From Lytechinus pictus (lineage: Eukaryota): a DNA stretch of 64,000 nt. The translations under genes and the position numbers were made by a program. The notes under the pieces are model-generated. The model saw only the letters and a program-made list of their open reading frames with translations. It had not been told where the DNA came from and ran no database searches. Each line of letters opens with the position of its first letter. Position 1 is the first letter of the stretch. The stretch is from NCBI RefSeq assembly GCF_037042905.1, contig NC_087250.1:18354001-18418000 (forward strand). Direction: 5' to 3'. Shown piece by piece: positions 2,773 to 32,453 of the stretch.

Positions 2773-3386
2773 ACAAGAATAGTCTCTAGCGCATTAGACA
2801 ATGAGTTTGTTTATTACCCAGTTGAAAGGATCGAGCAGTCTCTTGATGTTATACATACATTTTTATATTTAAATATTGCGTATTCCCAGATTTGCTATCA
2901 TGTTAAGTCTGTATACTTGAGAGTGATACAATGTGTAATATCTTCCAGGTTCATTTTTTATGCTCCCTTCCCCTTTTCCTCCTCCTCTTCTCTCTCTCTC
3001 TCTCCTTCTTTTCTTTCTTTCTTTCCTCCTTTCTTCTCCTTTTTGACCCCTTACCCTTTTTCATACTCTCCAACCTCTTCTACTTCCTTTTTTTTCAACT
3101 TCCTTTTTTCTCTTCTTTTTCTTCTTCTGCTTCTTCATATTCATCTTCTTTTTCTTCTCCTTTCTTTTTTCTTTCTCATATTCCTTATTACTTTCTCCCC
3201 ATCTCGTCCTCCTTCCCATCCTATCCTAATTTATTCTGAATGGTCTGGTTTGACCATTTATAAAGAAATGCGGTTCAGGTTCAGGTATAACATTCTACCC
3301 TTTCAAATTTGTTAAATGCAATATTTTTTAGTATTATGAACATGCACAGTTATAAAAAAAATTTATATAAATATTTAGGCTATATT

Positions 3387-6300: not shown

Positions 6301-6648
6301 TTGACCCCTTACCCTTTTTCATACTCTCCAACCTCTTTCTACTTCCTTTTTTTTCAACTTCCTTTTTTTCTCTTCTTTTTCTTCTTCTGCTTCTTCATAT
6401 TCATCTTCTTTTTCTTCTCCTTTCTTTTTTCTTTCTCATATTCTTTATTACTTTCTCCCCATCTTGTCCTCCTTCCCATCCTATCCTAATTTATTCTGAA
6501 TGGTCTGGTTTGACCATTTATAAAGAAATGCGGTTCAGGTTCAGGTATAACATTCTACCCTTTCAAATTTGTTAAATGCAATATTTTTTAATATTACATA
6601 CATGCACAGATAAATAATTTTTATTCATATAAATATTTAGGCTATATT
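3387..6648 (+). repeat. Tandem array unit, copy 2 (~3.26 kb, empty)
   Basis: Direct near-identity to copy 1. Confidence 0.95.
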
Positions 6649-8063
6649 TTAAGAAAGTTTATGAAATGATTAATTATAAAAAAAAATGTATTATATATAT
6701 AAAAAATACTTTCAATCAAATATTTTTTATGTAATTATAATTTGAATGTCATATTTACTTATATTATTTAGATGTATCCTTGAACTTTGTGACTGAAAAA
6801 CCAAATTTGACTGTATTTTTATCATATTCGTGTATACAATTATAGATAACTATCGATTAAAGGTTTATTAATTTGCAGCCAGAGGAAATGATTTGCAATT
6901 TTCGTTTCATGTCAAAAGCGCCACATCTTTTTAATAGACTTACAGACAAATGTAAGAGTACCGAAGCGATTACGTCAGTTGCCATGGTGTCATGACGGCC
7001 TGGTTCTAAACAAATGAACCCGCCAAATGAAGCGTGTGTTTCTCATAGGAGAAAATGGCTGCTATCGGAATTTGATCGCTTATAACATATTTTTCAGACG
7101 AGCCAACTTTCATATACAAATGTTTATTTCCAATTCGTCTTATGCCAATTCGTCCAATTGCCTACTCGTCTACTATCATTTGGTCTACCATCAGTTCGTC
7201 CACTCACCACATGGTGTACTTTCATTAAATCTAATGGAATTCCATCTAATAACCTGCAGTTGGTCCAATAGCCATTTAGTCCCGCTTTTAGTCCATATAC
7301 CATTAAGTCTAATTGGACCAAGTGTTAAATTTTGCAAAATGAATGAAAATGAAATGGATATTAGACCAACTGGTCATGTTGACGGACGGAATGGCAGTAG
7401 ACTAAATGAAAGTAGACCATGTGGCGAGTGGACAAGTTAGCAGTAGACGAATTGGCAATCGTCAGCTGCGACTCAGTTTACTACCAGCCCGCCATGATAC
7501 CATGGCAACTGACGTCACACTTCGGGACTCTACACTAATCTACTTAGAGGGGAACCTCACCCTGACAATAAACTGGTCTAAATCAATAGCCAAAAATGGG
7601 GTAAAGTTTTTGATGGAAAATCAATCCAAGGATTAGAGTTGTGAAATTTTCTTTAAATAAAGAGAATTTTGGTCTGGTATTCGGCAACTCTAATGACGGC
7701 CTTTCAGAATATGCACCCCCCTTAAAAAAAAATATCTACATTTAACCCAAAGTTAGGTTTATGCCGGTTCATGTAACTCCAGCTAACACGATGAGCACGG
7801 ATTGACACGTGAAAAAATACTTGGAATGAAAGCGTGTGCCCCTTTGGGAAGTATTATACATTAATGCTCTTCTGCATTGAGTGGTCAATGAGCAAAAGGA
7901 GTTACAAAGCGTTAAAATGACTTATGTATAGTGATTGTGCTATCATATTATCATGGTAGTCTGTCCCACGGATAATCGAGAATGAAAATATAAAGTTATG
8001 ATATAGAAAAACATGTAACTTGTCTCTAATACCGATTGAAATTAAGAATATAGAACAATAAGA

Positions 8064-11000
8064 TAGTCGATTTGACATTTTCCGAACCTAGAAATTTTCT
8101 TTCTGATGAAGTTTTTTTCTTGATTCGTGTTCCTATGGGGTCCTAGAACAAATTCAGCTTGGTTGCCCAAAGTTGCCGTTTGGGCAATTTCGCTAATTTG
8201 CATAAATCCAAAATGGCCGCCAGATGCCATCTTGAAAACCTAACTTTTGAACCCCTTTCCACAAAATGATGAGTAATGACTCGTTTTAGGGGTTTAGAGA
8301 TGTGTAGAACCGATTTCTGGAATCGTTTTCGCAATATAAGGTCATCTTCAGGTCAAATCCAAGATGGCCGCCAGATGCCATCTTGAAAAATTAAAGTTGA
8401 ACCCCTTGCCCCAGAATGATGAGTAATACCTTTGTTTAGGGTTTTTTGGGTGTGTAGAATCCATTTATGCTGTCTATTTTGCTATATAATGTCATCTTCA
8501 GGTCAAATCCAAGATGGCCGCCATATAACGCCATCTTGAAAAATCAATTTTTTAACCCTTTGCCCCAGAATCCTGAATAATAACTCTTTCATGAGTCATT
8601 TGGTATGTTGATTCAATTTATGCTGTAATTTTGCCTAAAAGGATAATCTTCAGATCAAATCCATGATGGCCGCCAACAGCGATCTTGAAAAAAATTACTT
8701 TCCGAGGCTTATGCATGTAAGAGCTAATGTAAAGGGATTTCAGTAAGAATACCCATTTCTTGTATTCTCAATTTTTAGTATAAGGGGAAGTCACATCTGA
8801 GATGTCAGTTTTCGACATTAACTGCTCACCTTAGAATGAATCCTCTTTAGGTTTGGGCTATGATCCATTTCGCGTGCATATTTATTGTTTTTAATGTCCA
8901 TCCATACTTTTGTACTGAAGAGGCTTTAGAGTCTTATTTGAATTTGAAAGTGTTTTCTCAATATTTTTTTCTAAATCAATGTGTCCAATGATTGGTAGGC
9001 ATCAGTTCCCCTTTTAATAAAACACGATGGTGTAGCGCTAGGTCTTACAATTTCGAGAGTGACTGTAGAGCTCCACCCTAGAGTGGCAGTATCTATAGCA
9101 AATGTGTACAGATGAAGGAGGATGGCGCTGAGACATGTTTAGATAGAAATGCTGCCCTAGCCTTCCTCCTAGGTCTTTGGTCTGCCAATTTAGCATACCG
9201 ATTATTTTCTGACGTCTTGACCCCTTTACTTATACGTAGCTCTCCATAGAATGGCGACTATCATCTACATCTTCACAGGTGTTCTTGTCTATGCCGGCAA
9301 GTTTTATGTCACATTTGCAGGTGTCTCTATAACGGAGGTGTGATCTACCGATGGGGGTGAGACCAATCACACAGCTCACCTTACCTTGGCGACCTTACCT
9401 TGGCGAATCCAAGAAAGGATTCGCCAAGGTTTCATGCGGCGAACATGTCCCAACCACTTGAGGTGACTTTGACTATAAGGAGCGAGAATAAGCTGGGGAT
9501 GCCAGCACTTACACTGAAGGGCGTCTGTATTTTTCACTTTGTCCTGCCCTTTAATGTGCATGATACGTCCGAGGTAGCTGACATGGAAGGTGTTTAGCCG
9601 CTTTTCTTGGTCGGCGTACGTTTTCAAGGACTTACTTCCGTACAGGAGCTTGGCCATGACTGACAGAATTTACTATTCCGGTGCTTATATACTTGTCCAG
9701 TGAAAGGGAGCTACATGTATGTAGTCGATCCAAGGTAGGTGAGGAGTCCACCACAAACAGACGAGTGCGTGCTGTTGATATAGATATCTGGAGGACAGTC
9801 AGTCTTGAGTCGATCAGGATTTCTGTCTCACAGGCTGATGGGTGATCCAAACTCCTTACATGCACAGGACAGGCAGCTGTTATGTATGACTAGGTCTTGT
9901 ACTCTCACCTCTTGAGAGGCAGGGGCGACATCGTTTCCGTACAACATTTCACGAATGAGATCCATCCTGACCATGGAACAGTCTTGGGGGAGCCTATCTT
10001 CTGCAGGAGGCTAAATAGTGCACTCCTGCTGACCAAGTCAATGGCTCTTGTCAGGAGGAAAAGTCCAATGATAATTATAAAGAAAGTTAATAAGTTAACT
10101 AATTTTTTGAAAAAATACGGAGTGATCACTTTTTATTTCAAATAATACTTTAAAGTCCTTTCACTGGAAAAGTATGGTTGGACAGAAATAAAAAAAGGAT
10201 TAGAACTCCTGAAATCATAGCCAAAGCCTTGAATGGTTTCATTCTAAAGTAAGCGGTTAATGACGAAATCTATCAACCATCTGATCATCTTAGACGTGAC
10301 TTGACCTCGAACTAAAAATGGAGTGATTAAAAGAAATGAATCATTCTCACTGAAATCCCCTTACATGAGCTCCCATACATAATAGTAACCTTATTAGGGA
10401 GAGTACTTCTTCAAGGTTCGATAGTCTCGGGAAATATATATTTTTTCTTAATATGGCGTTTAGCGGCCATGTTTGATTATTTTGACCTGGAGATGATGAT
10501 CATGATATATTGTAAAATTATTTAGAGAAATGGAATCAACATACCAAATAACTCGCGAAAAGAGGGACAAAAACGTGAGAATTAATAAAAGAAATGAGTA
10601 TTCTCATACTGAAATCCCTTTACATAAGCTCTTACACTTATAAGCCACGGAAAGTAATTTTTCAAGATGGCGGTAGGCGGCCATATTGGATTTGATCTGA
10701 AGATTATCCTTTATGCAAAATTACAGCATGAATTGAATCAAACATACCAAATGACTCACGAATAGAGTTATTATTCATGATTCTGGGGCAAATGGTTCAA
10801 AAGTTGATATTTCAAGATGGCGTCATATGGCGGCCATCTTGGATTTGACCCGAAGATAACATTATATTGCAAAATAGAAAGCAGAAATGGATTCTACACA
10901 CCCCAAAACCCCTAAACAGAGGTATTACTCGTCATTCTGGGGCAAGGGGATCAAAAGTCAATTTTTCAAGATGGCATCTGGCGCCATCTTGGATTTGACC

Positions 11001-11301
11001 TGAAGATGACCTTATATTGCAAAAATGGTTCCAAAAATCGGTTCTACACACATCTAAACCCCTAAAACGAGTCATTACTCATCATTTTGTGGAAAGGGGT
11101 TCAAAAGTTAGGTTTTCAAGATGGCATCTGGCGGCCATTTTGGATTTATGCAAATTAGCAAAATTGCCCAAACGGCAACTTTGGGCAACCAAGCTGAATT
11201 TGTTCTAGGACCCCATAGGAACACGAATCAAGAAAAAAACTTCATCGGAAAGAACATTTCTAGGGTGGTGTATTGAGCCTATAGGACTGTCAAATCGACT
11301 A
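8064..11301. mobile_element. 3238-bp non-autonomous TIR DNA transposon (TAGTC...GACTA termini, 3-bp TSD; Academ-like)
   Basis: Perfect 14-bp TIR tagtcgatttgaca/tgtcaaatcgacta and ~700-bp imperfect inverted arms with 150-bp subrepeats. TSD AGA (8061-8063/11302-11304); empty site acaataAGAgagg in copies 1, 2 and 4. Confidence 0.9.
9200..10065 (-). mobile_element. Degenerate RTE-clade LINE RT fragment inside the 8064-11301 element
   Basis: Minus-strand peptides IDLVSRSALFSLLQKIGSP (KAFD region), IREMLYGND (decayed YADD) and LLYGSKS..YADQEKRLNTFH...LKWLGHVRRM. Frameshifted. Confidence 0.8.
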
Positions 11302-13067
11302 AGAGAGGAAAAACTATAGGAAATAAGGGGGATGTTTTTAATCGATTGTAATCTTTAATTAATAATAGATTATATCTAATGCAGTATCTTTTTATTTCTT
11401 TCATTACGTAGTATTAACAAAGAGTCCAAAACGACAGTATGATGAAGGTTAATATAAATTTAAGTACAATTTATCAAATTTGTGTCCATTTTTGCGGAAA
11501 AGACAATTAAATATCGATATTTTGCTCTTTATGAAGTTTTACTTTATCATAAACTTGTTTATTTTTTTCCTTCATAATTATATACAATAAAAAATTTACT
11601 ATTGAAACAAGTATTACTGATAGAAAATAAAAGTTTAAAAAATTTTGATAAGGGAAGATTCTTTCATTCTCCCTTTAAAGGTAAATTCCAGTTTTGGTAA
11701 GGATCTCAAAATGACTTTTTACATAATCCAATCTAATGACCACCCAAGTGTCTGTTTGTATGAATAAAAAATATGTGCCAAAGGATTCTGGAAGAAATTG
11801 TGTAATTGCTGAGAAATAAGCAAAATAAGCGCGGATTCGGGCACTTCCGTCGGGTCTTTATTCCAGCAATAATAATATAGGCGGTGCTGCACCATCCCGA
11901 GTTTGCTCAACCTCGAGATTTTAGCCCGATCGGCCCTCTTCGTGATCAATCTCAAGATTCAAGAAACCCCGTCTCCACCATCCAGAAGAGCGATTCCCGC
12001 TCGAGCGTAGTCTAGTTCTAGACGATATTAAACGAATCTATTTGCACCGCGATATACGTTCTATTCCGTGCGTACGCCCAGCCGAGTGTGCGCGCAAAAC
12101 CGAGAACCTGTACTCCGAGAAATATTAAACGAATCTATTTGCACCGCGATATACGTTCTATTCCGTGCGTACGCCCAGCCGAGTGTGCGCGCAAAACCGA
12201 GAACCTGTACTCCGAGAAAATATCGTCTAGAACAGTTGCTCAGCGGTGACGTCACTCCCTCAGATTTTTGAGGGAAAGTCGTTAAAAGTGGACACGCCTC
12301 CCGTTCAGCCACTAGTCTTTGTTAACAGCAAGGAAGATTACTGGGTTGAGAAATATGGTGTGATCTACCGATGAAATGAATATCAATTACCTAAAAAGGG
12401 ACTTTTTGTTATAAATAATTGATAAAAGAAATCAAATTAAACACACAAAAACATAAAAAATGAATCGTATCGTATATGTTTCCCCTGATACCTACAACAT
12501 TGGTTATAAGCGTAGACTATCGTATGGCATACATAATCAATCGGATCGCACAAAGCAGCACAACATAAGCCATAGACTTGTGTACAGTACCGTGCTGTTG
12601 TATCAGGGAGACTCCCAATTCCCTGGTTGTATTGTGTATTGTATACAGCGCGCGGTTTTCAAATTCATTTTCTTGCGATCTTCAAAGTCGTTATTTCCAA
12701 CTGTTTAGACATATGCATGATGGAATCTCTGACAGCATGACGTTCATTTCCCGTCGCCATCACACCATATATGAAAAAACAAACGAAGATAAGTGATCTA
12801 GACCTCAATTTGTATGCACTAGCTGATTTGGTAAACACGCAAGAAACTGAATTTATTATATAGAATTAGGTTTATTCATTATTTTCACTTCAAGAACAAA
12901 AAACAGTTGAATTGACAACTGATTTAGTCCATTAGATATTCTTTGCTACATCTTATCTCATTAGAAGGGAGACATATCATTCACACTTGTATGAAAAAAT
13001 GAAATAATTCTGATTCCATGTAATAACACAAGAAACAGGATAGTGGGGATGTGAAATCTTCAACCCA

Positions 13068-13387
13068 CATGGGCGGAAATCCCAGAGGGGACAGGGGGAC
13101 GTGTCCCCCTTGAAAAATAGTAGGGGGACACAATATCAAATGTCCCCCTACTATTTTGGTCTTTCATGGAGAAAAATACATCACTTCACAATAGAAATAA
13201 TACATGTATTTTGGACTAAATGACCTTATATTTTGGGTGAAAACCCTTTTTTGTGGGGGGGGGGGGAGGTTGTCAAATTTTGTTAGGGTTAAAATGTCCT
13301 TACATTTAGGGTGATAACCTTTTTTTTGTTTGTCAAATTTTACAGGCCCGCGGTACCCCTACATTTGAGGACAGATTTCCGCCCATG
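13068..13387. mobile_element. hAT-like MITE (320 bp)
   Basis: TIR catgggcggaaatc/gatttccgcccatg; 8-bp TSD TCAACCCA (13060-13067, 13388-13395). Confidence 0.88.
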
Positions 13388-14225
13388 TCAACCCACCTAT
13401 TAAATATATCAATGACGACATGCATATCACCATTTTCATAAAATATTGCTAAACTTTAGAATTAAATAACTTAACTATTTGTTATCAGATTTTCATAAAA
13501 TGTATTTAATTCGAAAAAATGTATTTAAAGTATACACACAAAGAAAATTCACGAAAGTGATGATTATAGACAAATTATATATGAATGGAAAGGTCTTGTC
13601 TTTTTATACACAAATATGTCACTAAAAAGTCTTATCGATGTCGTGGAAATGCAAGAAATGAAATTATTAGAGACCATTCTAAGCCCCCCAGCCGCCCCCC
13701 AGACCGACAGTTCACGCAGTGAAAACAGTCGAGAATAATGACGTCACACAATAATCGAGCTCATCATCCCTCTGTGCATAATACACTGAATCACCTTACT
13801 GACCTCTTCAATATCTTCCGAATTTACCGTTTTCTTCATGTAATGTGACATCCGAATTCTGTTTTCGACAACTTCAGACTATAAGGGAACCAGAACTGTG
13901 TTATTTTGCCCGTTTTTTATTGAATTGTGAACTGGAAAGATCGATTTTGTCCACTCGACAGTCTTCGTTGTGTTGCTCTACTAACTATTGAAAAACTCCA
14001 AGCTGCACGGTCCCATTCACTTGCTCCCGATGCATGTTGCAGGCTACGCTGTTTGATCCAGTCAAAAGTCAAGGTAAGCATGTTTGGAAACTGTACTTGT
14101 TCTGACGATGCATTCAGGTCAGATGACAGATACAGATCTGATATAAGTTTAGAATCATGCATTTTGGCATAACTACTATTAAAATTAAAAAGTTTTTATT
14201 TTAGAAATAATGTTTTTGTACAATT

Positions 14226-14833
14226 CCACCCAAGGCAAGGGTTCATTACATGCCACGCACAGAAAAATCAAGCCATAGAAGTCGTGTGTTGTGGACCCAA
14301 GAAGTGAGATCCCAGACGCCTCCAGGCTAAGCACGCGCGACCCACTAGTTAGAAATCCACTGCCAAACGCGGTTCGTGGTGCGGGGTTAGTATACTTAAT
14401 ACGTGTGAGTGGCACAATTCCAGCAGATTTTTTCTTCAGATTTCTAAAACTGGTCAGGACTCAGGCAGGCAATTAAATTATTTAGGAGCACTGAGTGGTA
14501 TGGACCATGGCTGAAAATCTGCTGTTTCAGAGGAATGTTTAAGTTTTTATTATACACAGAATTATATCACCATGATGCCGATGTCATGAAGCCAGACAAA
14601 TTTTCAGCAGTGATTGATTCCTGGCCAAAATCACTCACACGTATTGCGAGGTTAGTATTAGTATACTACTAGTACGTATTGCGAGGTTAGTATTAGTATA
14701 CTAACCACGAACCGCGTTTGGCAGTGGATTTCTAACTAGTGGGTCGCGCGTGCTGGGATCTCACTTCTTGGGTCCACGACTTCTATTGCTTGAATTTTCT
14801 GTGCGCGGCGGCATGTAATGAACCCTTGGGTGG
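14226..14833. mobile_element. Foldback/MITE-like element with ~170-bp inverted arms
   Basis: gggttcattacatgcc...ccactgccaaacgcggttcgtggt pairs with accacgaaccgcgtttggcagtgg...ggcatgtaatgaaccc. No clear TSD. Confidence 0.65.
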
Positions 14834-14941
14834 GCCAAAATTAGAGTCTGGTGTTTCTTTCTGATTAGAGTGTTGCTGCATATATGTATGCGTAATGCCT
14901 TCAACAATGAAGATAAATGCAATCTTTGTAATGACACAGAG

Positions 14942-15132
14942 ACTCAGAGAGCACCGTACCTCAAGTGATGTTCGTGTAGTCTCCACTTCACTACTGGAGT
15001 ACTGCTACAGCCTACACTACGCTACACACTTACCCGGGTAGGTGTGGCGTACATGTACGGTAGTGTAGCGGTAGTGAAGTGGAGTGGGGCCTACACAAAC
15101 ATCACTTGAGGTAGAGCACCAGTGTTCTGAGT
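14942..15132. repeat. ~190-bp imperfect hairpin (probable small MITE)
   Basis: tacctcaagtgatgttcgtgtag pairs with ctacacaaacatcacttgaggta, centred on tacccgggta. Confidence 0.55.
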
Positions 15133-17859
15133 GGAACTTTTCAGGTGTCTAAACCTACTATCATTTGTTGTTGACCGGGAATTACATGCCACCGCACGTC
15201 ATCAATCATCACGATAATTAAATTCATACTTTGATTTGATTATTTAAACTATTTCTTTTTTTCTCTCTTCTACACACAGATCTGCACAATTGCTAACTCT
15301 GGTGACTTCTGGTCTCTGCTTGCTACCTCAATCTGGGAGATTCCATCATGTCCTTTTACTATGATTTGGATATAGCCATTTTTTTCTTCACTCTTTCCAG
15401 GACCTACGGTTTGCAAGTTGTGGAATGATAATGATACAAAAGAAAAAATTTCTTTATCAATCTTGGAAACAATTTTGAGCACAGTTTTGGAGAGAACTAA
15501 GAAATTTTACTCGGACAGGAATACAGCTTGTCAAAAATAATAACACACAATTTAAAACGAAAGAACAATTTTAATGTTACTAGGGCATTTTGCGAGAAAT
15601 GTTATACTCAATCACACGTCCCAAATCAAGGGAAAGTCCTTTGATTAAACATGTAGTTGAATTGCGATTGCAACTCGACCTTATTACGCTTGAATTTGAA
15701 TTTAAGACTTACGCTTGATTTGCAATTGAACATAAGTTTCTTGCAGTGCCCCATAATTATGTTTTGTTATCAGATATTTAACGTGCTGATTTTTCTCGAA
15801 AGGTATAATATATTTGTCCTTTTAAACGGTATTTGAATATGGGTACGCCTTTTATTTGTTTTCCACAATATTTATTGCATGTATGAACAGAAGTGAAATA
15901 TTTATTGTGAAGCACTGTGAATGTTGTGTGATGGTTCATCATCAGACTGAAAGCCTGGTGGATGTGAGGAAGTGGCCTGGATGAAAGAAAAGTGAACATG
16001 TGTCCAATTACTGATTTGCATATTCTAAGACAATTTTGTTTCTGGATAAATTTTGCTATGCATTCCCTACATTAAAAGTAAAGGAGAAGTCCACGCAATC
16101 AAAAATTCATTTGAATTTAAAGAAAAATAACAAGATATTGCAGGAAATTTCATAAAAACTTTGATTCAAATTTATATAATTACTATTTTAACAGTTCCGT
16201 AAATATAACCTATTGTGATCAGATGAAGAGTTTCCTATCGTCAAATCTGCAAAGAATAAAAAACAAAATGCCACAAAAAATAGAAACGAATGTGATGTGA
16301 GTGACAACTCTAATTTGCATATCATTGTTTTGTGTATATGACTGTTTTGAGTAAAAACAACAAGGGAAATCACTCTATTCAAATAATTTTTAGTTGATGT
16401 GGACTTGACTTTTAACTCTACCCCTCCCATCCCAAATAAGAGTAGAAATAATCTAATCAAGAACTTGAAAATCAAAAGCAGCAATTAAGAAGCAAGATTT
16501 GATAAATACAGGTCTGAATAGAATTTCACAAGAAAATAAAAAGAGAAAAAAAAGATGGGTAGGGACGGGGAAGGAATTAAAAAAAAATACCCAGAAAAAA
16601 AAAATCCGAGTTTCGAACTAGGGTCCTCGCACATGACAAAACAATGGCCAACGCATTTGGCCACAGACCATCGCCCTAACAGGAAGGCATTTTTAAGATA
16701 TATGAAAGAAAGTCCGCTCGCCGCTGTTTCCTAATAATGCTTCGGCAATTCAACTGCAATTTCAGTCATTTCGCGATGGATATTGCCGTGTTTTTTTTGT
16801 GATTCCTGACTTTGCTACTTAATAAAATTTCATAATTTTTGTTCAGTCATAAAGAATAATGTCTATGCTTTATATTGACTATAACATTAATGTGACGCAA
16901 GTGTGATTTCTACGTGAAAATATGCTTTGTTTATTCACCTATATTTCTTGAAAAAAAAAAAAAATTCTAAGCTAAATATCGGTCACCAAAATACGTTAAA
17001 TGTGCATTTTTTTTCACTGTTCAGTAAATTCAAACTTTTATCTATATAACAAGACCAATCTTAAGAGGAATAAACAATTCTAAGAGCAAAAAACGCTGAT
17101 TGGAAAGATCGTCTCCAATGGGCTGCTGTCAGCTCAGCTGCTCACTGCTCATTGTGTGACGTCACTCAGCTGGAGCTCGCAAGAGGACCGGTGGAAGGCA
17201 GAAATATGGCATGAAAATAAATCATTTTTGAGAGCTGATTTCTGCAATCTCTGATCACTATTTTGAAAAGTGAAGTTATATATCTGATTAGTAATACTTC
17301 CCCTTTACAATGATGACCACATAAAGTCATTATAAAATACTTTTGATTCTTTGGATGTATACTTTAATATACATATTTTCAGCCCGAAGTACCTCCAAAA
17401 CAAGCTGTGTATCTGAATAAACATGCGTGCGCGTGTTTAGAGTTAGACCTAATATCTGGGCATTCTAAATACACTTTTTTTATTATAAAAATCACTAATG
17501 CGAGCGCGAAACGCGAGGAGAAAATATTTGATATTCCGATCTGAAAAAGGGGTGAATTTTAACACTATTTTAAGTACTGGAAAGGAAAATTCTGAAGGGG
17601 GGATGTTATTGGAATATGTAAAAGACTATGAAAACGATTTGCGATTGTCGGATGTGATAATTATGTACATTATAACATATTTAAAAATATACAGGGAGGA
17701 ACCTGATTTTCGTGGGGGTGCTGCCTATGGAAAATAATACACGCAGCACCCCCAGGAAAATTTCTGGGGATGCTTTAGTACCCCAGCACCCCGCTTCCCA
17801 GGTCCATGCTTGCCAAGTGCTAAAGAATATTCTTGCATTGATTTCATGGACGGGTTTGG

Positions 17860-18803
17860 TAGACTCAATCGCCAAAAAGGCTAATTCACGCTTGAAATTT
17901 TTGTATAGATATCAAACCTGTTTGAATATGAAGTCTAGACGTATTTTATGCTTTGCGTTAATACAATGTTTATTCGACTATGCTAATGCGGCTTGGTACG
18001 GTAGTCTGGGTGTTAATACGGATATGAAAAAGCTAAGAATAATTCAAAATAAAATTGTGAGATATATAAATGTTTTAGGACCAAGAGCACATGTCGGATA
18101 TAATAAACTTGAAAAGGCAGGATTGCTTTATGTAGATCACAGGTCACAACAATTAGTAAATACACCACGTGCATAAAATATTCTATTCGGATAAATTAGA
18201 TCATTATATAGCAAATAATTCCACCCATGTATCAAATATCCATAGGTACGATACTTGAAATAGTAATTTTAATTTCGTATTACCAAAACGTGAAGGACAT
18301 ATTGGAAACACTTTTTATTTTAATGGCATCCAATCTTGGAATGCTCTTCCTGAAAAATAAAAGCCGTTAAATTCTTTTGTCAATTTAAGAGTGCATTAAA
18401 AAATCACCTAAAACTTGAAGCTGCCCAAGAACAGCATTACCAGTAAAATAACACATTTTGTACAGTTGGTTTCTACTATTGTAGATAATGTATACATTAG
18501 GGTATGTTAAAATATAATCTTGTTTCACATATTAGGAAGATTATTGTTTGCTTCAGATGTTTGCAAATTATATGACTGATGGATATTTTTGTATGTATTT
18601 TATTTTATTTTTTCCCCCAATATTCCAGTACTTGTCGTAGTTTATATTTTTTGTTACGATATGTTAATGTTTTATACTAACTATAGGACCCCATTGGAAA
18701 TAAGCCTTTCGGCTTTCATGGGCTATCCTGTCAAGGTATTTCCTCAATTTCATTGTAATCTCCTGTGATATTCTTGACGGATAAAATCAATCAATCAATC
18801 AAT
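17860..18803 (+). mobile_element. 5'-truncated L2/Crack-type LINE (RT C-terminus, 3'UTR and (TCAA)n tail)
   Basis: ORF 17712-18176 contains KKANSRLKFLYR...LIQCLFDYANAAWY...KLRIIQNKIVRYI. 3' stem-loop region at 18686-18730 and tail ataaaatcaatcaatcaatcaat at 18781-18803. Confidence 0.82.
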
Positions 18804-19708
18804 GTTCATTTCATGGCCTGCCGACGTCGGAGTCGAGCGTAACAGCGCTCGTTTCGTATCCCTTCCGCCCTTTTCAGTATTCGGACAGTATATACCTTTT
18901 AATTTCCGGACAGCTGGCAAAACACGCGCGCGCGCTCATTATCGATACTATTGTTTTATTTTTTATGAAGTGCGACGATCGATGGAGGGGTCTTCTTTGT
19001 TTTAATTTAAATAAAGGGGTGGATGAGCTTATTAATTGTTTGCTTTTATTTAAATTATGATCTTATTGATTCAAATTATAAAGGGGGCTTCATTGTTGTT
19101 TGTTTTTATTTCATTTCTTATTGAATAAATTATTCATAGTGATTGAAATGATAAGGGGGGGGGGCTCTTTTTATTTATTATATTTTTTATTCTTAGTAAA
19201 TAATGATAAAAGGGGAGAAACATGGCTTGTTAATTCCGTATTTAAAAAAAATCTCATTCTTATAGAGATTGGATTCAATAATAGCATTGCTTTATTCTTT
19301 GTTGTTTTTTATCTTACTTTTCATTTTGTGATTAGAATGATAAAAGGATGAGGCGGGGCTTCTACGTTGTTTATTTGTTTTCTAATTTATTTTTATTTAG
19401 TGATTAAAATGGTAAAGGGGGAGGGTAGGCAGATGTTTGTTTTCTTAGATTTATATTTTTAGTGATTTAAATGGTTAATGATTTTTATTTTACTAATTAA
19501 AATGGTTGGTATAAGGGATGGTAGGCATGTGTTTTTTTTTACCGTTTTTTTTTTAAATTTTTCTTAGTGATTGAAATAAAATAAATTTATCATAATACAT
19601 ATAGTCATGTAAATTATTTCTTTTATATTTTTTTATTCTTAAAATTGCAATTAGCCAAAGTACCTGTTCCTGCTGCCCGCCTTCTATCTTATTCATTCTA
19701 CTTAGGGT

Positions 19709-20131
19709 TACGCTTCGTAATTCCGAAGGTTCTTTATTCCGAAGGTTCGTAATTCCAAATTGCCTATACCTCGATGTTCGTTAATCCGAAAACGTAAAAG
19801 GTTTCGTTAATCCGAACATTTGTGGCGTTATTCCGAATGTTCGTTTTTCCGAAGGTTGGATAATCCGAAAACGGAATAAGGTTTGCTGTTCACTAGGTTC
19901 GTTAATCCGAAAACGAAATAAGGTTAGTTGTTCCGAAGGTTCGTTAGTCGGAAAACGAAATAAGGTTCGTTAATCATTTCGTTTTCGGACTAGCGAACCT
20001 TCGGAATTACGAACCTTTCATTTTCGGATTAACGAACCTTCGGAATTACGAACCTTATTTCGTTTTTAGATTAACGAACCTTCGGAATATCCGAACCTTC
20101 GGAATAACGTAGCTTCGGAATTACGAATGTA
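19709..20131. mobile_element. MITE built of ttccgaaggttcg subrepeats in inverted arrangement
   Basis: ttcgtaattccgaag at the left end and cttcggaattacgaa at the right end; the subrepeats switch strand at ~19975. Confidence 0.75.
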
Positions 20132-21269
20132 TGCGGTATGCGTTTATAGTGTACTGCACACCTCTGTCCCTCCTGTCTCCTCCCCCTAACTTCCCCCTCT
20201 CTTCTAATATTATAAAACGTAATTTTTTCTCACATGATCCATCAGTTACGTTTTTGTCAAGTGCACAAAAATTGTTTGTATCTATTTTTAAACAAAATTA
20301 TTATTACGACTCAATATCTATTTGTTGTAATTTTGTAATGTAACTAAGATAGGGGCTTGCCTCTTGTACAAGCTTTGCTTTTTTCGGCAAGTCCCTCCGT
20401 TTTACTTTTAAATACAAATGTCATTTGAAATAACTTTATTTACTGAATTGTGTTACTTAAATCTATGATTATGTTAGATATATATTATATGTTGTCTTGC
20501 AGTATTTTCGACCTTGTTATGTTATGTTTATCATGTACAATTGTGAAACGGAAATAAATCTAATCTAATCAAATCTAATCAAATTAAATTTATATTAAAG
20601 TTATGAAGCCAAAATATTAATATACTACCACTATTTTTAATGTATGATGTAGTGAATTAATTATTTACAATACTGTTGTGGAACAAAAATGTCCATCATG
20701 CGGTAAATTTATCTCTTGTGTTTTTTTTTTCGCTAGGGTGGGGGGCATTTATGGTTTGGATTATGCCCATCCCCACTTAAACTGTATTTAATATATGTGC
20801 ATCTGCTTTTTCAGTTGATCAGTTGTTTATATCATATTTATTCTCGTTTTGAAAATGTCAGTGGACACACTTTGATTTATTATTCATTTATTCTGTAGCA
20901 ACAGGCCCCTCTCCTACTAAGAATAAAAATACTATTGTTTAAGATTATTATTGTTTGATATAAAGTTTATATATATGTTTTATTCTTGTGTATGTTACCT
21001 TATAAGTCCAGGTCGGGGAGGAAAGCCTGCGCCAGTAATTTCTTTCACAGGCAACTTGGACTTGTACTGTAAACATCCCTGTTCATTTTGTCATTGTAGC
21101 CTTGTAGGCCCTATATTCTCATGTAAACTGTTTAATTGTAAACTTTTTTTTGTTGAAATGCGGAATAAAATAATGATAAAGAAGAAGAAGAAAGAAGAAG
21201 AAAAAAGAAGAGGAAGTAGAAGATAACAAAAAAGCAGAAGAAAGGGAAATAAACTGAGACCTCCATTAA

Positions 21270-21869
21270 AGGACAAGTCCACCCCAACAAAAAGCTGATT
21301 TGAATAGAAAGAGAAAAATCAAACAAGCATAACGCTGAAAATTTCATCAAAATCGGGTGTAAAATAAGAAAGTTATGACATTTTAAAGTTTCGCTTAATT
21401 TCACAAAACAGTTATATGCACACCCTGTTCGGTATGCAAATGAGGGAACCGATGACATCACCCACTCATTATTTCTTTTGTATTTTATTACATGAAATAT
21501 TTTGATTTTCTCGTCACTGTCATGTGAAACGAAGTTTAATTCCTCCCTGAATACATGGAATTCCATTATTTTAACATTTTGTGGTTCAAGCAAGGGGGTC
21601 CTAATTGCCAAATTCGTAAAAAGGCAAAATTGTATAATTCAAAAAATAAAAAAACAAAAGAAATAGTGAGTGAGTGACATCATCGACTCTCTCATTTGCA
21701 TATCACTGGGTTGAGCATATAACTATTTTGTGAAAAATAAGCGGAACTTTAAAATGTCATAACTTTCTTATTTTACATCCGATTTTGATGAAGCTTTCAG
21801 CGTTATTCATGTTTGATTTTTCTCTTTCTGTTCAAATCAGCTTTTTGTTGGGGTGCATGGACTTGTCCT
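21270..21869. mobile_element. Kolobok-like MITE (600 bp, TTAA TSD)
   Basis: TTAA|aggacaagtcca...tggacttgtcct|TTAA with ~125-bp imperfect TIRs. Confidence 0.88.
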
Positions 21870-23308
21870 TTAATGGAGGTCTCATTTTATTCCCCTTTCT
21901 TCTGCTTTTTTGTTATCTTCTACTTCCTCTTCTTTTTTCTTCTTCGCCTTCTTCTTTTTCTTCTTCTTCAATCCTTTTCTTCTTCTTCTTTATCATTATT
22001 TTATTCGGCATTTCAACAAAAAAGGTTTACAATTAATCAGTTTACATGAGAATATAGGGCCTACAAAGCTACCATGACAAAATGAACAGGGATGTTTACA
22101 GTACAACACCAACATGTTATTTTTTTTTTGATTTTTTTTTTTTACATCTATCTCCATTTTTTCACCTATCAGGATTCTGCACAACGTCAAAGATGTATTG
22201 GTGTAAGAAATGTTTATCTTCCAGCCCTTCCCCCCTTTCCCACACTTTTATTTTTTTCTTAATTCTCTCTCCCCTACTCGTTACCTAATTCTCTTTCTTT
22301 TTCACTTTCTTCTCCTTTTCCTCTTCACCAGTCTTTTTCTTCTCAATTTCTCTTCGACCTCATCCCCCCTCTTTTATTTTTATATGCATGTCCACTCCTT
22401 GCATTTCCCTCCTTCATGCAGTATTACCTTTTTATTTCATCTTTCGACTAATCTTCCTTCTCTCTTGTCTTTTAATATTCAGCCTCCATTGCCTTTCCGT
22501 ATATAGGCCTACTCTACTCGTTTCTTTTCAATTTCTTCCATGCATATATTTTTTTTACTCCCTTGCAAATACCATGCAAGAAAGAGAAAACACGAAAATT
22601 TTCATAAAAATAAAAAAAAAATATTGGCCTGTCATGTACCGCTAGCACTAACTTTAATAGATAGCAAGAAATCCTTCCCTGACTCTGGCCGAGCTGAGCT
22701 GATATCCGTGTATTACATCAGGGAAGTGTTATTACATCAATCCCACATGCACAATGCATGAAGCTATGCACATTGCATGCACACAGCTGATAACATGTAC
22801 AAAACGTAAAACTATTACGTAATAGCTCCATGGTTGCACTGTTGTTCGGCGCGGTGATTGACAAGTAACTCATGCATATTTATGAAGCACTCGTCCGTTG
22901 ACCTTTGACCTCTGACGTCACCGCTGAGCAACTGTTCTAGACGATATTTTCTCGGAGTACAGGTTCTCGGTTTTGCGCGCACACTCGGCTGGGCGTACGC
23001 ACGGAATAGAACGTATATCGCGGTGCAAATAGATTCGTTTAATATCGTCTAGAATTTTCTCGGAGTACAGGTTCTCGGTTTTGCGCGCACACTCGGCTGG
23101 GCGTACGCACGGAATAGAACGTATATCGCGGTGCAAATAGATTCGTTTAATATCGTCTAGAACTAGACTACTCGAGCGAGGCAACAGGCCCGAAATTCCG
23201 AGCATGCGCACTTTCGGATCTTGGAGTTTCAACGGCGCGCGCTTTTGAATAACTTCCCGCGATAGGCAATCAATGTACATACTCCTTTCACTGGCAGGCT
23301 TTTATGAG

Positions 23309-25128
23309 CCCAGGACCAAAATCCAATTGAAACCAGTTGGATTTCCAACTGGTTTCAATTGGTTTCAATTGGTTTCAACTGGTTTCAATTGGTTTTAACT
23401 GGAATTTAACAATTTCCAGTTGAAACCAATTGAAACCAGTTGGGCAACTGGAAATCCTAACTGGAACCAGTTGGGTAACTGGAAATGACTTCCAATTGGG
23501 AATGATTTCTAACTGGAACCAGTTGAGTAACTGGAAATCCCAACTGGAACCAGTTGGGCAACTGGAAATCCTAACTGGAACCAGTTGGGTAACTGGAAAT
23601 GACTTCCAATTGGAAATGATTTCTTACTGGAACCAGTTGAGTAACTGGAAATCCCAACTGGAACCAGTTGGGCAACTGGAAATCCTAACTGGAACCAGTT
23701 GGGTAACTGGAAATGACTTCCAATTGGAAATGATTTCTAACTGGAACCAGTTGGGCAACTGGAAATCCTAACTGGAACCAGTTGGGTAACTGGAAATGAC
23801 TTCCAACTGGAAATGATTTCTAACTGGAACCAGTTGAGTAACTGGAAATCCCAACTGGAACCAGTTGGGCAACTGGAAATCCTAACTGGAACCAGTTGGG
23901 TAACTGGAAATGACTTCCAATTGGAAATGATTTCTTACTGGAACCAGTTGAGTAACTGGAAATCCCAACTGGAACCAGTTGGGCAACTGGAAATCCTAAC
24001 TGGAACCAGTTGGGTAACTGGAAATGACTTCCAATTGGAAATGATTTCTAACTGGAACCAGTTGGGCAACTGGAAATCCTAACTGGAACCAGTTGGGTAA
24101 CTGGAAATGACTTCCAACTGGAAATGATTTCTAACTGGAACCAGTTGGGTAACTGGAAATCCTAACTTGAACCATTCAGTTGTGTAACTGGAAATCCTAA
24201 CTGGTACCAATTGGGTAACTGAGATGACTTCTAACTGGAAAGATGGGTAACTGGAAATGAATTCTAATTGGAACCAGTTGGGTAACTGGAAATTATTTCC
24301 AATTGGTTTCCAATTGGAAATTTTCCAGTTACCCAACTGGATCCAATTGAAACCAGTTAATTTGCATATTATTTGCCAGTGTGCACAGATTAATGTTTTA
24401 TGAGATTAATCATCATTAACAATGTATCTATTTAATTCTTTACAATTTCAAGTACCACACTTTTTAAAGATTAGTATTTAGAATACTTAGCAGTGAAAAC
24501 CATGTTCATAAATGTTATAGATTATAATTAAAACAGATTAAAGGATAATTAGTACACCACTAACTGTTACCAAATTACATCAAATAAAAGTACATATATT
24601 TGAAGATCTTCCATATAAATATATATACATGAAAGTCTGTATTTTATCAATGCCCTTTACATTGGTATTAATAGACATATAACACTGCTTCTGTGTTGGC
24701 ATGAGAAATAGTTACTGCAAATGCTAATTAATTTGTAACTAATTAAGTTCGTTCCAACTGGAAGTTCCAATTGGATCCAGTTGGAAACCAATTGGTTTCA
24801 ACTGGTTCCAGTTGAAACCAGTTGCCTCCAATTGGTTTCAACTGGAACCAATTGAAACCAGTTGCCTCCAATTGGATTCAATTGGTTTTAATAGGGAAAT
24901 TGGAACAACTGGAACCAATTGACAACAATTGCCAACTGGTTCCAGTTGCCCAATTGGTTTTAACTGGAACCAATTGGCAACTGGTTTTCAATTGGTTTTT
25001 AACTGGAACCAATTGGCAACTGGTTTTCAATTGGAACCAGTTGTTCCAATTTCCCTATTGAAACCAGTTGGCCAACTGGTTTCAATTGGTTTTGCCCTAA
25101 TTGGTTTTAACTGGATTTTGGTCCTGGG
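23309..25128. mobile_element. 1820-bp CMC/EnSpm-like non-autonomous element (CCC...GGG, 2-bp TSD) nested in the left TIR of the foldback element
   Basis: TIR cccaggaccaaaatcca/tggattttggtcctggg; TSD AG (23307-23308, 25129-25130). The intact right TIR (reverse complement tatgaggcgccgaatg) shows the empty state. Confidence 0.9.
23430..24300 (+). repeat. Internal minisatellite: ~114-bp higher-order unit built from aactggaaccagtt palindromic monomers
   Basis: 38-codon periodicity visible in the spurious ORFs at 23430 and 23813. Confidence 0.85.
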
Positions 25129-25324
25129 AGGCGCCGAATGTACCAATATTATATAGAACAATTATTTGTTATATAATCATTATTTATTAAATAATAACTA
25201 TTATTTATATATAATTTACATTTTATTTGTAAATAACTACTATTATATAAAATATCATTTCTAATTATTTATATATAATTCCAAGTAATACTTCATTATT
25301 TGTAAATAATAATAGTTCGACATT

Positions 25325-25720
25325 CCATTATTTATAAATAATGATTATTTGTTTTTCATTATTTATAAATAATGATTATTTGTTTTTCATTATTTACAAA
25401 TAATGATTATTTGTTTTTCATTATTTATAAATAATGATTATTTGTTTTTCATTATTTATAAATAATGATTATTATTATTATTGTATTTACAAATAATGAT
25501 TATTTGTTTTTCATTATTTATAAATAATGATTATTTGTTTTTCATTATTTATAAATAATGATAAATGGTTTTTCATTATTTATAAATAATGATTATTTGT
25601 TTTTCATTATTTACAAATAATGATTATTTGTTTTTCATTATTTATAAATAATGATTATTTGTTTTTCATTATTTATAAATAATTTGTTGAGTTTTCCATT
25701 ATTTATAAATAATGATTATT
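25325..25720. repeat. 31-bp AT-rich tandem array (outer domain of the foldback arm; mirrored at ~28900-29320)
   Basis: Unit ttatttataaataatgattatttgtttttca, containing the 18-bp palindrome cattatttataaataatg. Confidence 0.88.
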
Positions 25721-28700
25721 TGTTAAATAATGAAAACGTCTACTTCATTATTTATAAATAATTTTTTCGAGTGCACCATTATTCTCATTATTTATAAATA
25801 ATCATTATTTAATGTTCGAGTTTTCCATTATTTATAAATAAAGATTATTTGTTAAATAATGAAATATCTACTTCATTATTTATAAATAATAATTTTGTTT
25901 CAATATCCCATTAATCATTATTTATAAACAATTTTTACAGTTTGCCATTATATACAAATAATCATTATTTATATACAAATAACCATTATTTATTAAATAA
26001 TGCCATTATTTATTAAATAATGCCATTATTTATTAAATAATGGAAAACTCGCTATAACATGCAAATGTGGGACCGCCCATGATATGAATATTCATGATGC
26101 GATTTCCTTTTTCGTGATTTTTCTTCACAAATTTTTGTCCATTTCCTCTTCATAATGACATTTCTTGAAGCAATTTTCTAGGGATATGGTCTGATTGTAA
26201 TATTCTTCATTTTCTATATAACTTCGTCTTCGTAGAAATATCAAAAAGTGTAATTTTATACGATTTTTCCTACAGTTCACAATCCCCATAGGCGCGCGTG
26301 TACGGTAGGGACAACCGGTGAATCGACGGAGTGCTCTTCATCGAAATACTATACGTTGGTTGGTCCCCGGAAGTGGCGGGCGGAATTTAGCCCGAATCTT
26401 AGATGGAAGTCGATCAAGTGCAGAGAGTGAAATATCAGTGTACTTGTACAGGCCCTTCTACTTTTTATAAATATTTCTTGTTGCTTTTTTTGTTAAGTTA
26501 ATTATTCCTGGTGTAGAGATAAGTTTCAGTTCTAATAATGCACTTCAAATACATTTTGGAGTGTCTGTTTGAGGCGTTTGGGGCGATTTCACCCTGGCCC
26601 CAAAATGCTCGCAACGACAATACGGGGGCATGATGACCCCTAAATTTTTAAAAACTTATTTTTCTATTGAAAATTATCACAAAATTCACCAAAAGTGTGC
26701 ACGAAAGCCTTCGTATTTCACTTTTAAAACTCCAAAAAGTGCCCAAATGACAAGCTTGGTCGCTTCGCTGTGTCGTTTTCAACTTGAGAAAGTTTACGCG
26801 TCTGCTTCCCCCCCCCCCCCCTCCTCCGAAAGAAATTATGTATACGGCCATGCTCTAAAGAGCCTGGCACATTGATTTATGTATACTTCATTTTCATTAT
26901 TTTTATCTCATTATCATCATGGCCTTACGCATAATTTTTTCCGGGGGGGGGGGGGGGTGGGGGGAGCAGGACGCGCGTAAACTTTCTCATAAAAATCTTG
27001 AAAAAGCGAAGCGACCAAGCTTGTCATTTGAGCTTGGTCGCGTCGCTGTCTCGCTTTCAAGATTTTTTTGAGAAACTTTACGCGCGTCCTAGCTGCTCCC
27101 CCCCCCCCCCCCGGTAAAAATTCTGTGTAAGGCCATGATGATAATGTGATAAAAATAATGAAAATGAAAAGTACATATAAATCAATGTGCCATATGCTCT
27201 TTTGAGCATGGCCGTTCACAGAATTTATTTCGGGGGGTGGGGGCAGACGCGCGTAAACGTTCTCAAGTTGAAAGCGAGACAGCGAAGCGACCAAGCTTGT
27301 CATTTGGGCTTGGTCCCGTGGCTGTCTTGCTTTCAAGATTTTTTTGAGAAAGTTTACGCGCGTCATGCTCCGGCCCCCCTGGAAAAAATTCTGCGTAAGG
27401 CCATGTTGATAATGAGATAAAAATAATGAAAATGAAAGTATACATAAATCAATGTGCCAGGCTCTCATTATCAACATGGCCTTCCGCATAATTTTTTCCA
27501 GGGGGGCCGGGGCCGGAGCATGACGCGCGTAAAGTTTCTCAAAAAAATCTTGAAAGCAAGACAGCCACGGGACCAAGCCCAAATGACAAGCTTGGTCGCT
27601 TCGCTTTTTCAAGATTTTTATGAGAAAGTTTACGCGCGTCCTGCTCCCCCCACCCCCCCCCCCCCGGAAAAAATTATGCGTAAGGCCATGATGATAATGA
27701 GATAAAAATAATGAAAATGAAGTATACATAAATCAATGTGCCAGGCTCTTTAGAGCATGGCCGTATACATAATTTCTTTCGGAGGAGGGGGGGGAAGCAG
27801 ACGCGTAAACTTTCTCAAGTTGAAAGCGACACAGCGAAGCGACCAAGCTTGTCATTTGGGCACTTTTTGGAGTTTTAAAAGTGAAATACGAAGGCTTTCG
27901 TGCACACTTTTGGTGAATTTTGTGATAATTTTCAATAGAAAAATAAGTTTTTAAAAATTTAGGGGTCATCATATCATGCCCCCGTATTGTCGTTGCGAGC
28001 ATTTTGGGGCCAGGGTGAAATCGCCCCAAACGCCTCAAACAGACACTCCAAAATGTATTTGAAGTGCATTATTAGAACTGAAACTTATCTCTACACCAGG
28101 AAAAATTAACTTAACAAAAAAAGCAACAAGAAATATTTATAAAAAGTAGAAGGGCCTGTACAAGTACACTGATATTTCACTCTCTCAGCTCATATGCACT
28201 TGATCGACTTCCATCGAGGATTCGGGCTAAATTCCGCCCGCCACTTCCGGGGACCAACCAACGTAGTATTTCGATGAAGAGCACTCCGTCGATTCACCGG
28301 TTGTCCCTACCGTACACGCGCGCCTATGGGGATTGTGAACTGTAGGAAAAATCGTATAAAATTACACTTTTTGATATTTCTACGAAGACGAAGTTATATA
28401 GAAAATGAAGAATATTACAATCAGACCATATCCCTAGAAAATTGCTTCAAGAAATGTCATTATGAAGAGGAAATGGACAAAAATTTGTGAAGAAAAATCA
28501 CGAAAAAGGAAATCGCATCATGAATATTCATATCATGGGCGGTCCCACATTTGCATGTTATAGCGAGTTTTCCATTATTTAATAAATAATGGCATTATTT
28601 AATAAATAATGGCATTATTTAATAAATAATGGTTATTTGTATATAAATAATGATTATTTGTATATAATGGCAAACTGTAAAAATTGTTTATAAATAATGA

Positions 28701-30567
28701 TTAATGGGATATTGAAACAAAATTATTATTTATAAATAATGAAGTAGATATTTCATTATTTAACAAATAATCTTTATTTATAAATAATGGAAAACTCGAA
28801 CATTAAATAATGATTATTTATAAATAATGAGAATAATGGTGCACTCGAAAAAATTATTTATAAATAATGAAGTAGACGTTTTCATTATTTAACAAATAAT
28901 CATTATTTATAAATAATGGAAAACTCAACAAATTATTTATAAATAATGAAAAACAAATAATCATTATTTATAAATAATGAAAAACAAATAATCATTATTT
29001 GTAAATAATGAAAAACAAATAATCATTATTTATAAATAATGAAAAACCAATTATCATTATTTATAAATAATGAAAGACAAATAATCATTATTTATAAATA
29101 ATGAAAAACAAATAATCATTATTTGTAAATAATGAAAAACAAATAATCATTATTTATAAATAATGAAAAACAAATAATCATTATTTATAAATAATGAAAA
29201 ACAAATAATCATTATTTGTAAATAATGAAAAACAAATAATCATTATTTATAAATAATGAAAAACAAATAATCATTATTTATAAATAATGAAAAACAAATA
29301 ATCATTATTTATAAATAATGGAATGTCGAACTATTATTATTTACAAATAATGAAGTATTACTTGGAATTATATATAAATAATTAGAAATGATATTTTATA
29401 TAATAGTAGTTATTTACAAATAAAATGTAAATTATATATAAATAATAGTTATTATTTAATAAATAATGATTATATAACAAATAATTGTTCTATATAATAT
29501 TGGTACATTCGGCGCCTCATAGGCTTTCGCCGAATTCGACCGGTGTTATGCAACAATCCTCTCGCTCGGCCGCGCTCAGCGAGTGAAGAAGTGATGTATT
29601 CTTCGTTAAATGATGGTTTTAATGTCATGGCGGAGAAGGAGGCAACGCTCACATTTTGCGAAGTGGGTTAACAAACGAACAATCACAATAAGTGGAATCT
29701 GTACAAAGACGAGCAATGCGTATAATCAACCCACAATTATCGTATACTGAGGCACTCAAAGAATTAAACTTAGAATTGTTATTCGACCGCAGGAAAATCA
29801 TGTGTGAAAAGCAATTCCTCCAATTGTAAAAGTTAGATCATATCTTAAATAACCTCCTTCCATCAAAGAAAGAGTATAAGTATGATTTTAGGAACAGAAA
29901 ACAATTTCCCTTGCCAACGTGTAAAACAAAGAGGTACAAACAGAGTTTTATCCCCTGGTGTCTGTACAACCTTCAATACAATGAGTTTGTTTATTACCCA
30001 GTTGAAAGGATCGAGCAGTCTCTTGATGTTATACATACATTTTTATATTTAAATATTGCGTATTCCCAGATTTGCTATCATGTTAAGTCTGTATACTTGA
30101 AAGTGATACAATGTGTAATATCTTCCAGGTTCATTTTTTATGCTCCCTTCCCCTTTTCCTCCTCCTCCTCTCTCTCTCTCTCCTTCTTTTCTTTCTTTCT
30201 TTCCTCCTTTCTTCTCCTTTTTGACCCCTTACCCTTTTTCATACTCTCCAACCCCTTTCTACTTCCTTTTTTTTCAACTTCCTTTTTTCTCTTCTTTTTC
30301 TTCTTCTGCTTCTTCATATTCATCTTCTTTTTCTTCTCCTTTCTTTTTTCTTTCTCATATTCCTTATTACTTTCTCGTCATCTCGTCCTCCTTCCCATCC
30401 TATCCTAATTTATTCTGAATGGTCTGGTTTGACCATTTATAAAGAAATGCGGTTCAGGTTCAGGTATAACATTCTACCCTTTCAAATTTGTTAAATGCAA
30501 TATTTTTTAATATTACATACATGCACAGATAAATAATTTTTATTTATATAAATATTTAGGCTATATT

Positions 30568-32350: not shown

Positions 32351-32453
32351 TACCCTTAGATTTACTCTTTATATTTACGGTTATTGATTTGTGCATCTTG
32401 CTATGTTTTTATTTTGAAATTTTTCGAATAATGGGATGTCTGTATCATCAGAG

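Follow-up and report, generated by a model that had tools for sequence, protein, structure and literature searches.

A tandem repeat array of Lytechinus pictus carrying four clustered transposon insertions, probably through serial nesting in transposon debris

A 64,000-nucleotide stretch of the Lytechinus pictus genome (NCBI RefSeq assembly GCF_037042905.1, contig NC_087250.1, positions 18,354,001 to 18,418,000), hereafter the window, harbors a tandem array into which four transposable elements with terminal inverted repeats (TIRs), termed INS1 to INS4, have been inserted. Self-comparison of the window, a check proposed by an earlier model reading of the letters alone (the sequence-only reading), revealed a repeat of 3.26 kb, the third copy of which is interrupted three times. 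As the same segment opens and closes the array, its segments are ordered B0-A1-B1-A2-B2-A3-B3, where B corresponds to 126-1880 and A to 1881-3384; without the insertions, the array is 11,596 bp long. The base-exact junctions (Table 1) agree with the three elements of 3.2, 11.2 and 6.2 kb with target-site duplications (TSDs) of 3, 8 and 6 bp that had been read before, and with a fourth element nested in the third.

The repeat unit is a mosaic. It combines a palindromic miniature inverted-repeat transposable element (MITE) with an older repeat that recurs at 34524-35100 and with a 203-bp MITE end found again at 34015 and 49832; it further contains a CpG-rich segment and a 3' fragment that we take to derive from a long interspersed nuclear element (LINE), the matched clusters carrying no name. 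Searches with Rfam and ARAGORN over the window yielded 0 RNA families and 0 tRNAs, so the unit is not an array of RNA genes. The Pfam search covered 105 stop-to-stop frames, comprising 103 of at least 55-65 residues from the unit, INS1, INS2, the core of INS3 and the downstream 4 kb, in addition to two from neighboring genes; no transposase was found among them, and the weak matches were judged to be due to chance.

Table 1. Positions of the array segments and of the elements inserted in them, in window coordinates
Feature	Position	Strand	Remarks
Right end of a Kolobok-like (TTAA-type) MITE	1..125		Matches the MITE arms of 21272-21867 by 85-91%
B0, left ancestral direct repeat (repeat debris)	126..1880	+	Empty INS1 site at 1507-1509
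A1: end of a TTAA-type MITE (203 bp), CpG-rich repeat (2081-2470), putative LINE 3' fragment, pyrimidine tract	1881..3384	+	INS2 and INS3 sites empty
B1, hybrid with B3-type 5' part and B0-type 3' part	3385..5140	+	Switch at ~3611-3703; INS1 site empty
A2	5141..6646	+	INS2 and INS3 sites empty; 13-bp deletion in common with A1
B2, hybrid, B3-type then B0-type	6647..11677	+	Switch at ~7547-7760; holds INS1
INS1, non-autonomous TIR element with Academ-like ends	8064..11301		3,238 bp; ends TAGTC..GACTA; TSD AGA (3 bp)
A3	11678..30565	+	Holds INS2, INS3 and INS4; private 26-bp deletion
INS2, non-autonomous TIR element with 247/258-bp arms	12008..23170		11,163 bp; ends TAGTCTAG..CTAGACTA; TSD CTCGAGCG (8 bp)
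3.8-kb TTAA-flanked (Kolobok-like) element inside INS2	13529..17363		Joint of 13501 to 17373 in run X6 is its empty site
Palindromic MITE inside INS2	21056..22112		0.6-kb TTAA-type MITE (~21270-21870) at its exact center
INS3, foldback element, IS3EU-like	23303..29521		6,219 bp including INS4, 4.4 kb without it; ends TATGAG..CTCATA; TSD GGCTTT (6 bp)
INS4, nested in INS3	23309..25128		1,820 bp; ends CCCAGG..CCTGGG; TSD AG (2 bp)
B3, right ancestral direct repeat (copy 4 of the sequence-only reading)	30566..32358	+	Empty INS1 site only; continues as the remainder of an older dispersed repeat

In the coordinates of copy 1, the TSDs of INS1, INS2 and INS3 are located at 1507-1509, 2203-2210 and 2329-2334, respectively. 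The three sites span 825 bp of un-inserted sequence, with those of INS2 and INS3 126 bp apart, and the inserted DNA amounts to 20,637 bp including TSDs, close to the previous estimates of ~830 bp, ~125 bp and 20.6 kb. The empty site of INS1 is present three times (copies 1, 2 and 4), and the empty sites of INS2 and INS3 twice each (copies 1 and 2). The proposal that the sibling copies preserve all empty sites is thus correct for copies 1 and 2, but copy 4, which makes up only 55% of the unit, ends at 32358 and therefore lacks the sites of INS2 and INS3. Similarly, the near identity ascribed to copies 1 to 4 does not extend to the last ~330 bp of B3, where 29-32 of ~327 positions differ from the other copies. 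A single filled copy is seen in the register of that reading, whereas by the array's own ends INS1 belongs to B2, and INS2 and INS3 to A3. Moreover, INS1 to INS4 all reside in copy 3, yet copy 1 starts at a MITE end that adjoins it at a TTTA/TTAA site, one that B1, B2 and B3 have without an insertion; this MITE, the left end of which lies beyond the window, is probably a further insertion, into a sibling copy.

The filled and empty segments are very similar to each other. For A, 2/1,209 sites differ outside the pyrimidine tract and 5/270 inside it, and for B the differences are 4/877 in the 3' part and 0/912 in the 5' part, giving a total of 6/2,998 sites (~0.2%) outside the tract. This divergence matches the arm identity of INS2 (0 mismatches in 247 positions) and INS3 (3 mismatches in 1,174 non-tandem positions). 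It indicates that, however the array was joined, the insertions gathered fast within 825 bp on one lineage, and that an insertion-laden haplotype, as envisaged previously, cannot have gained them slowly.

B1 and B2, which lie inside the array, are each a hybrid of B0 and B3, which bound it. There are 66 gap-free columns at which B0 and B3 differ, 65 of which are informative. B1 changes from B3-type to B0-type by a single switch between unit positions 350 and 442, with 61/65 informative sites in agreement, and B2 does so by a single switch between positions 989 and 1165, with 63/65 in agreement; neither score was reached in 20,000 shuffles (permutation p = 5e-5 each). The inner repeats therefore combine the 5' part of the downstream repeat with the 3' part of the upstream repeat, as non-allelic homologous recombination requires. 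Hybrid repeats of this kind are the mark left by unequal crossing-over between older direct repeats, and the data support that the array arose in this way, twice, between two old direct repeats. Unequal exchange, which had been put forward to explain the whole locus, hence accounts for the origin of the array, but leaves the clustering of the insertions unexplained, the filled and empty segments being so little diverged. Over the 5' part, B2 is identical to B3 along 912 aligned bases (0/235 and 0/677 differences), B1 differs from B2/B3 at 6/235 sites, and the first 235 bp of B0 differ from B2/B3 at 16/233 sites. The 13-bp deletion shared by A1 and A2, together with the 26-bp deletion private to A3, fits an order in which B2 formed first, and a further exchange, this time with a chromosome of greater divergence, may have added B1 afterwards. 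The switch in B2, taken to be the youngest crossover, has all four insertions on its downstream side.

A join of this kind might also be made by the assembly, in which case an empty and a filled haplotype would have been fused inside B2, and the insertions would still be real and still be clustered on one haplotype. A false overlap of B3-type and B0-type reads yields the same hybrid as a crossover; the B2 switch falls within sequence of near identity, 300-520 bp ahead of INS1; and none of the contigs listed for four public sequencing runs over 6647-23335 spans a filled junction. However, alleles are expected to differ, as B1 does, whereas the 5' part of B2 equals B3 throughout. In addition, two hybrids with different switch points would require two false joins, and B is only 1.75 kb long. 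An assembly artifact is accordingly improbable. Two other readings were discarded: a haplotype switch near 6060-6180 was dropped after the B hybrids had been mapped, and an interpretation of B-A-B as a long terminal repeat (LTR) retrotransposon or a terminal-repeat retrotransposon in miniature (TRIM) was ruled out, as B is a mosaic of unrelated repeats that continues into an older repeat.

INS1 possesses arms of ~700 bp with 150-bp subrepeats, which enclose a minus-strand fragment of a decayed LINE 3' end, matched by an Atlas cluster named as an endonuclease-reverse transcriptase fragment (score 0.95). The arms differ at 43/676 positions (6.4%), and at 3/3 sites checked the left arm agrees with neither the right arm nor the run contigs, indicating private changes. 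INS1 thus seems to predate the sequence flanking it, and an old copy must have been re-mobilized. Its two ends are unequal: 14 shared terminal bases are followed by a spacer of 9 bases on the left (8064-8110) and 23 bases on the right (11240-11301), a difference of 14 bases.

Because INS2 has a palindromic target, a 6-bp TSD with element ends GT..AC is an alternative reading. Elements of the hAT superfamily have 8-bp TSDs and YA..TR ends, with which the 8-bp reading of INS2 and its TAG..CTA ends agree; the 6-bp reading suits the junctions equally well, and the scanned frames hold no transposase. The sole difference between the arms is an 11-base indel. Each arm (12008-12254 and 22913-23170) contains a duplicated module bounded by TCTAGA, with a period of 97 on the left and 108 on the right. 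The interior is a patchwork of other repeats and low-copy DNA, with depth bins in the public runs ranging from 0.4 to over 1e6. Five recognizable nested pieces account for 6,600 of the 11,163 bp (59%), and the arms of the nested pieces are 4-11% apart. The sizes that had led to the term giant elements hold, but much of INS2 is thus made of nested pieces, and INS3 alone measures only 4.4 kb. Two pieces, at 13529-17363 and ~21270-21870, display the TTAA TSD and RR..YY termini that an excerpt of PMC9587614 gives for Kolobok elements, and the MITE at 1-125 shows one end only, with a TTTA/TTAA target. Four stretches of low depth (12217-12773, 18901-19457, 20572-21128 and 22243-22799) are possibly captured host DNA. 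Two exon-like pieces were noticed by eye, near 14000-14070 and 15280-15350. That the arms of INS2 are perfect and its contents decayed suggests that the element arrived already loaded, and most likely it carried the old cargo along; nested TIR elements have been proposed to move as a unit in Drosophila, according to part of PMC1794594.

The outer domain of INS3 is a 31-bp tandem repeat, and the GGCTTT site is empty in copies 1 and 2. INS4 is inserted after base 6 of the left end of INS3, and these six outer bases joined to the sequence after INS4 equal the right end of INS3. As INS4 splits a terminus of INS3, it landed in place, and it should have immobilized its host. With CCC..GGG ends, a TSD of AG and subterminal arrays, INS4 may be EnSpm/CACTA-like, by a rule of C-starting ends, 2-bp TSD and subterminal repeats for which no confirming passage was found in the literature.

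BLAST detected similarity in 0/6 pairs of the four elements, in line with the view that they are unrelated. That view is tempered by the first five bases shared by INS1 and INS2, and by the alternative 6-bp TSD of INS2. Nevertheless, the Repbase rule for non-autonomous elements, as excerpted from PMC4455052, asks for TSDs of equal length and at most one mismatch over terminal bases 1-11, whereas INS1 and INS2 have TSDs of 3 and 8 bp and 3 mismatches in the terminal 11 bases, and so fall outside a single superfamily by this rule.

Public sequencing runs indicate the nature of the target. Nine runs were found with a word share of 0.06-0.09, which possibly represent a related species, and none is from the window's own sample; four of them supplied contigs over 6647-23335, a range that has INS3 and INS4 outside it. 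Depth in these runs is summed contig depth and not a copy number, and coverage gaps carry no evidence. Nearly all of 6647-23335 is under very high summed depth. The empty site of INS2 is joined across by contigs with a depth of 7,870 in run X6 and 296 in run X7, compared to 46 and 4-7 for the lowest contigs listed; for X1 and X2, no such join is among the listed contigs. This 50- to 170-fold contrast indicates that the target of INS2 and INS3 is a dispersed repeat, and these two elements are therefore transposons inside another repeat. The arm family of INS2 is at low depth (5-372 at position 23005). Scans of metagenomes with the INS2 end and with the start of the CpG-rich repeat gave 0 matches each. 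The CpG-richest 400 bp of the unit, which contain the sites of INS2 and INS3, have a CpG observed/expected ratio of 1.29 and a GC content of 0.52. Between the two sites, at 2234, lies what we take to be an NRF1-like motif. A CTCF-like consensus, as we assume it to be, had 0 matches in the window, so motif-guided stacking is not seen there.

The clustering of the insertions is modest. Three uniform points in the array fall within the observed span with p = 0.014, and within one copy in the earlier register with p = 0.07, both post hoc; for at least two of three in the CpG-richest 400 bp, p = 0.04. In a sequential simulation of four insertions, all three later ones lie at most 706 bp from an earlier junction with p = 0.009, and distances as small as 6, 132 and 706 bp occur with p = 8e-5, a statistic fitted after the fact. 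Set against the 247 windows of this genome that carry notes, the values of 0.014, 0.07 and 0.009 are unremarkable and that of 8e-5 is only suggestive. Altogether, they give a weak hint of a local landing preference; targeting of open chromatin by DNA transposons is documented in the excerpt of PMC7337890.

With so many windows considered, the values for the span and for one copy would also suit pure chance in a transposon-dense genome, the cluster being conspicuous only through its siblings. Another TIR element of 5.3 kb at 51306-56563, and the high-depth repeat that makes up almost all of 6647-23335, are consistent with such a background. However, four events took place in ~0.1% divergence per lineage and none in ~10.8 kb of siblings, INS4 is only 6 bp from the junction of INS3, and not all families are abundant, as the low depth of the INS2 arms indicates. 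Chance alone is therefore unlikely. The three short distances would fit a process in which insertion begets insertion, a fresh element end or the repair of its junction opening the adjacent DNA to unrelated transposases. This would be specific to the copy and not to the sequence, in agreement with the identical targets left empty in A1 and A2. If so, nests would begin cooperatively, fresh junctions setting off a chain of further insertions at distances of tens to hundreds of bases; the locus would then amount to a natural experiment in which the identical empty siblings serve as controls and the preference can be assigned to the copy. Against this, only 1 of ~6 nested insertions inspected by eye in the window is at the tip of its host, the order of INS1 to INS3 is not fixed, and four events are too few to separate such a process from sequence preference; we regard it as rather less likely than chance.

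The sequence-only reading also offered a true multi-family hotspot or transposon trap, which the data do not bear out: the p value of ~0.01 is post hoc, common repeat debris forms the target, and two siblings have this CpG-rich target without an insertion. A dedicated trap, such as a cluster of PIWI-interacting RNAs (piRNAs), would explain four different end types in a small span. However, the cluster is 825 bp wide with siblings 2-3 kb away empty, gene-like exons are present in the downstream 27 kb together with a single TIR element that exceeds 3 kb, and the window gave no RNA family or tRNA. We consider a trap highly improbable.

Altogether, we favor, with a probability of roughly 0.6, ordinary serial nesting in a debris array built by crossing-over, with a modest target preference. 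In this scenario, the old and partly diverged direct repeats B0 and B3 flanked a 1.5-kb patch A, all of it transposon debris, and two unequal crossovers between B copies, probably in the order suggested above, added two A-B units. Four gene-less cut-and-paste elements with different end types then inserted singly into the segment that follows the B2 crossover, each producing a TSD of its own, with transposases probably supplied from elsewhere in the genome. INS2, INS3 and INS4 may have clustered since the 400-bp CpG-rich segment, which is promoter-like, would be more accessible than the AT-rich rest; INS1, 700 bp off in another old repeat, is probably a coincidence. The siblings would owe their empty sites to having been copied earlier than, or separately from, the very recent insertions. 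Three observations weigh against this scenario. The distances are tighter than plain nesting predicts (p = 0.009, or 8e-5 post hoc); A1 and A2 took no insertion in this CpG-rich target, although A1 was exposed for at least as long; and the age of INS1, as read from its arms, does not match that of its flanks.

Beyond the array, an older local duplication is present, which pairs 31893-32449 with 34524-35100 (78% match) and 33727-33816 with 35105-35193 (92% match), so the region has duplicated before. The 5.3-kb TIR element further downstream has 160-bp subrepeats and no clear TSD; its arms differ by 3.4%, and an element of ~430 bp is nested in the right one. A small gene at 39373-41890 on the plus strand has a signal-peptide-like start and an intron with a 780-bp TCA repeat; its exons are presumably C-type-lectin-like, and Pfam gave no match for the frame of the first exon. 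Exons at 46265-61593 on the minus strand probably encode an AGC-type protein kinase with a 532-residue low-complexity exon, which we take to resemble Greatwall/MASTL.

The elements share features with several known groups. Academ elements have TAG..CTA ends, as does INS1. Its TSD of AGA is also within the 3 or 4 bp given for AcademX in an excerpt of PMC10045372, whereas INS1 has a core of LINE debris and no Pfam match to an Academ transposase or nuclease among its 14 scanned frames. INS2 resembles INS1 in its first bases, but its TSD of 8 bp, or 6 bp on the other reading, departs from the 9 or 10 bp of AcademH in the same excerpt. INS3 has the TA..TA termini and 6-bp TSD which that excerpt gives for IS3EU/GingerRoot, but it is a near-perfect foldback of 4.4 kb with a tandem outer domain and no IS3-like DDE transposase in the 11 frames of 26040-28570 scanned with Pfam, the AT-rich arms and INS4 being outside the scan. 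INS1, INS3 and INS4 have the same long modular TIRs, tandem-repeat outer domain and non-coding middle as the foldback elements FB, Tetris and those of sea urchins in part of PMC4079207; by contrast, their TSDs are 3, 6 and 2 bp, compared to 8-10 bp in Tetris.

Heat-shock promoters of Drosophila are reportedly insertion hotspots of DNA transposons. Like the open-chromatin and promoter hotspots in the excerpt of PMC7337890, the target here is CpG-rich, promoter-like and struck more than once; unlike them, it is a repeat fragment with putative promoter status, and several superfamilies are involved. A literature search found no earlier description of such a cluster, which is not proof of its absence from print. 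The closest counterpart is the high-density regions of Drosophila, which, in the part of Bergman et al. 2006 (PMC1794594) that describes them, contain duplicated patches of transposon debris with nested elements of several families and extra insertions in only some copies. The present nest differs in being very young, entirely cut-and-paste, only 825 bp wide and with a crossover history readable from markers. It offers base-exact empty sites for four little-studied types of TIR elements and a readable history of two unequal crossovers. If the clustering is copy-specific, it would further provide a testable handle on how nests begin, be it by target access, attraction to earlier insertions or selection alone. 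The locus is a known kind of structure, and a clean case of how transposon nests grow.

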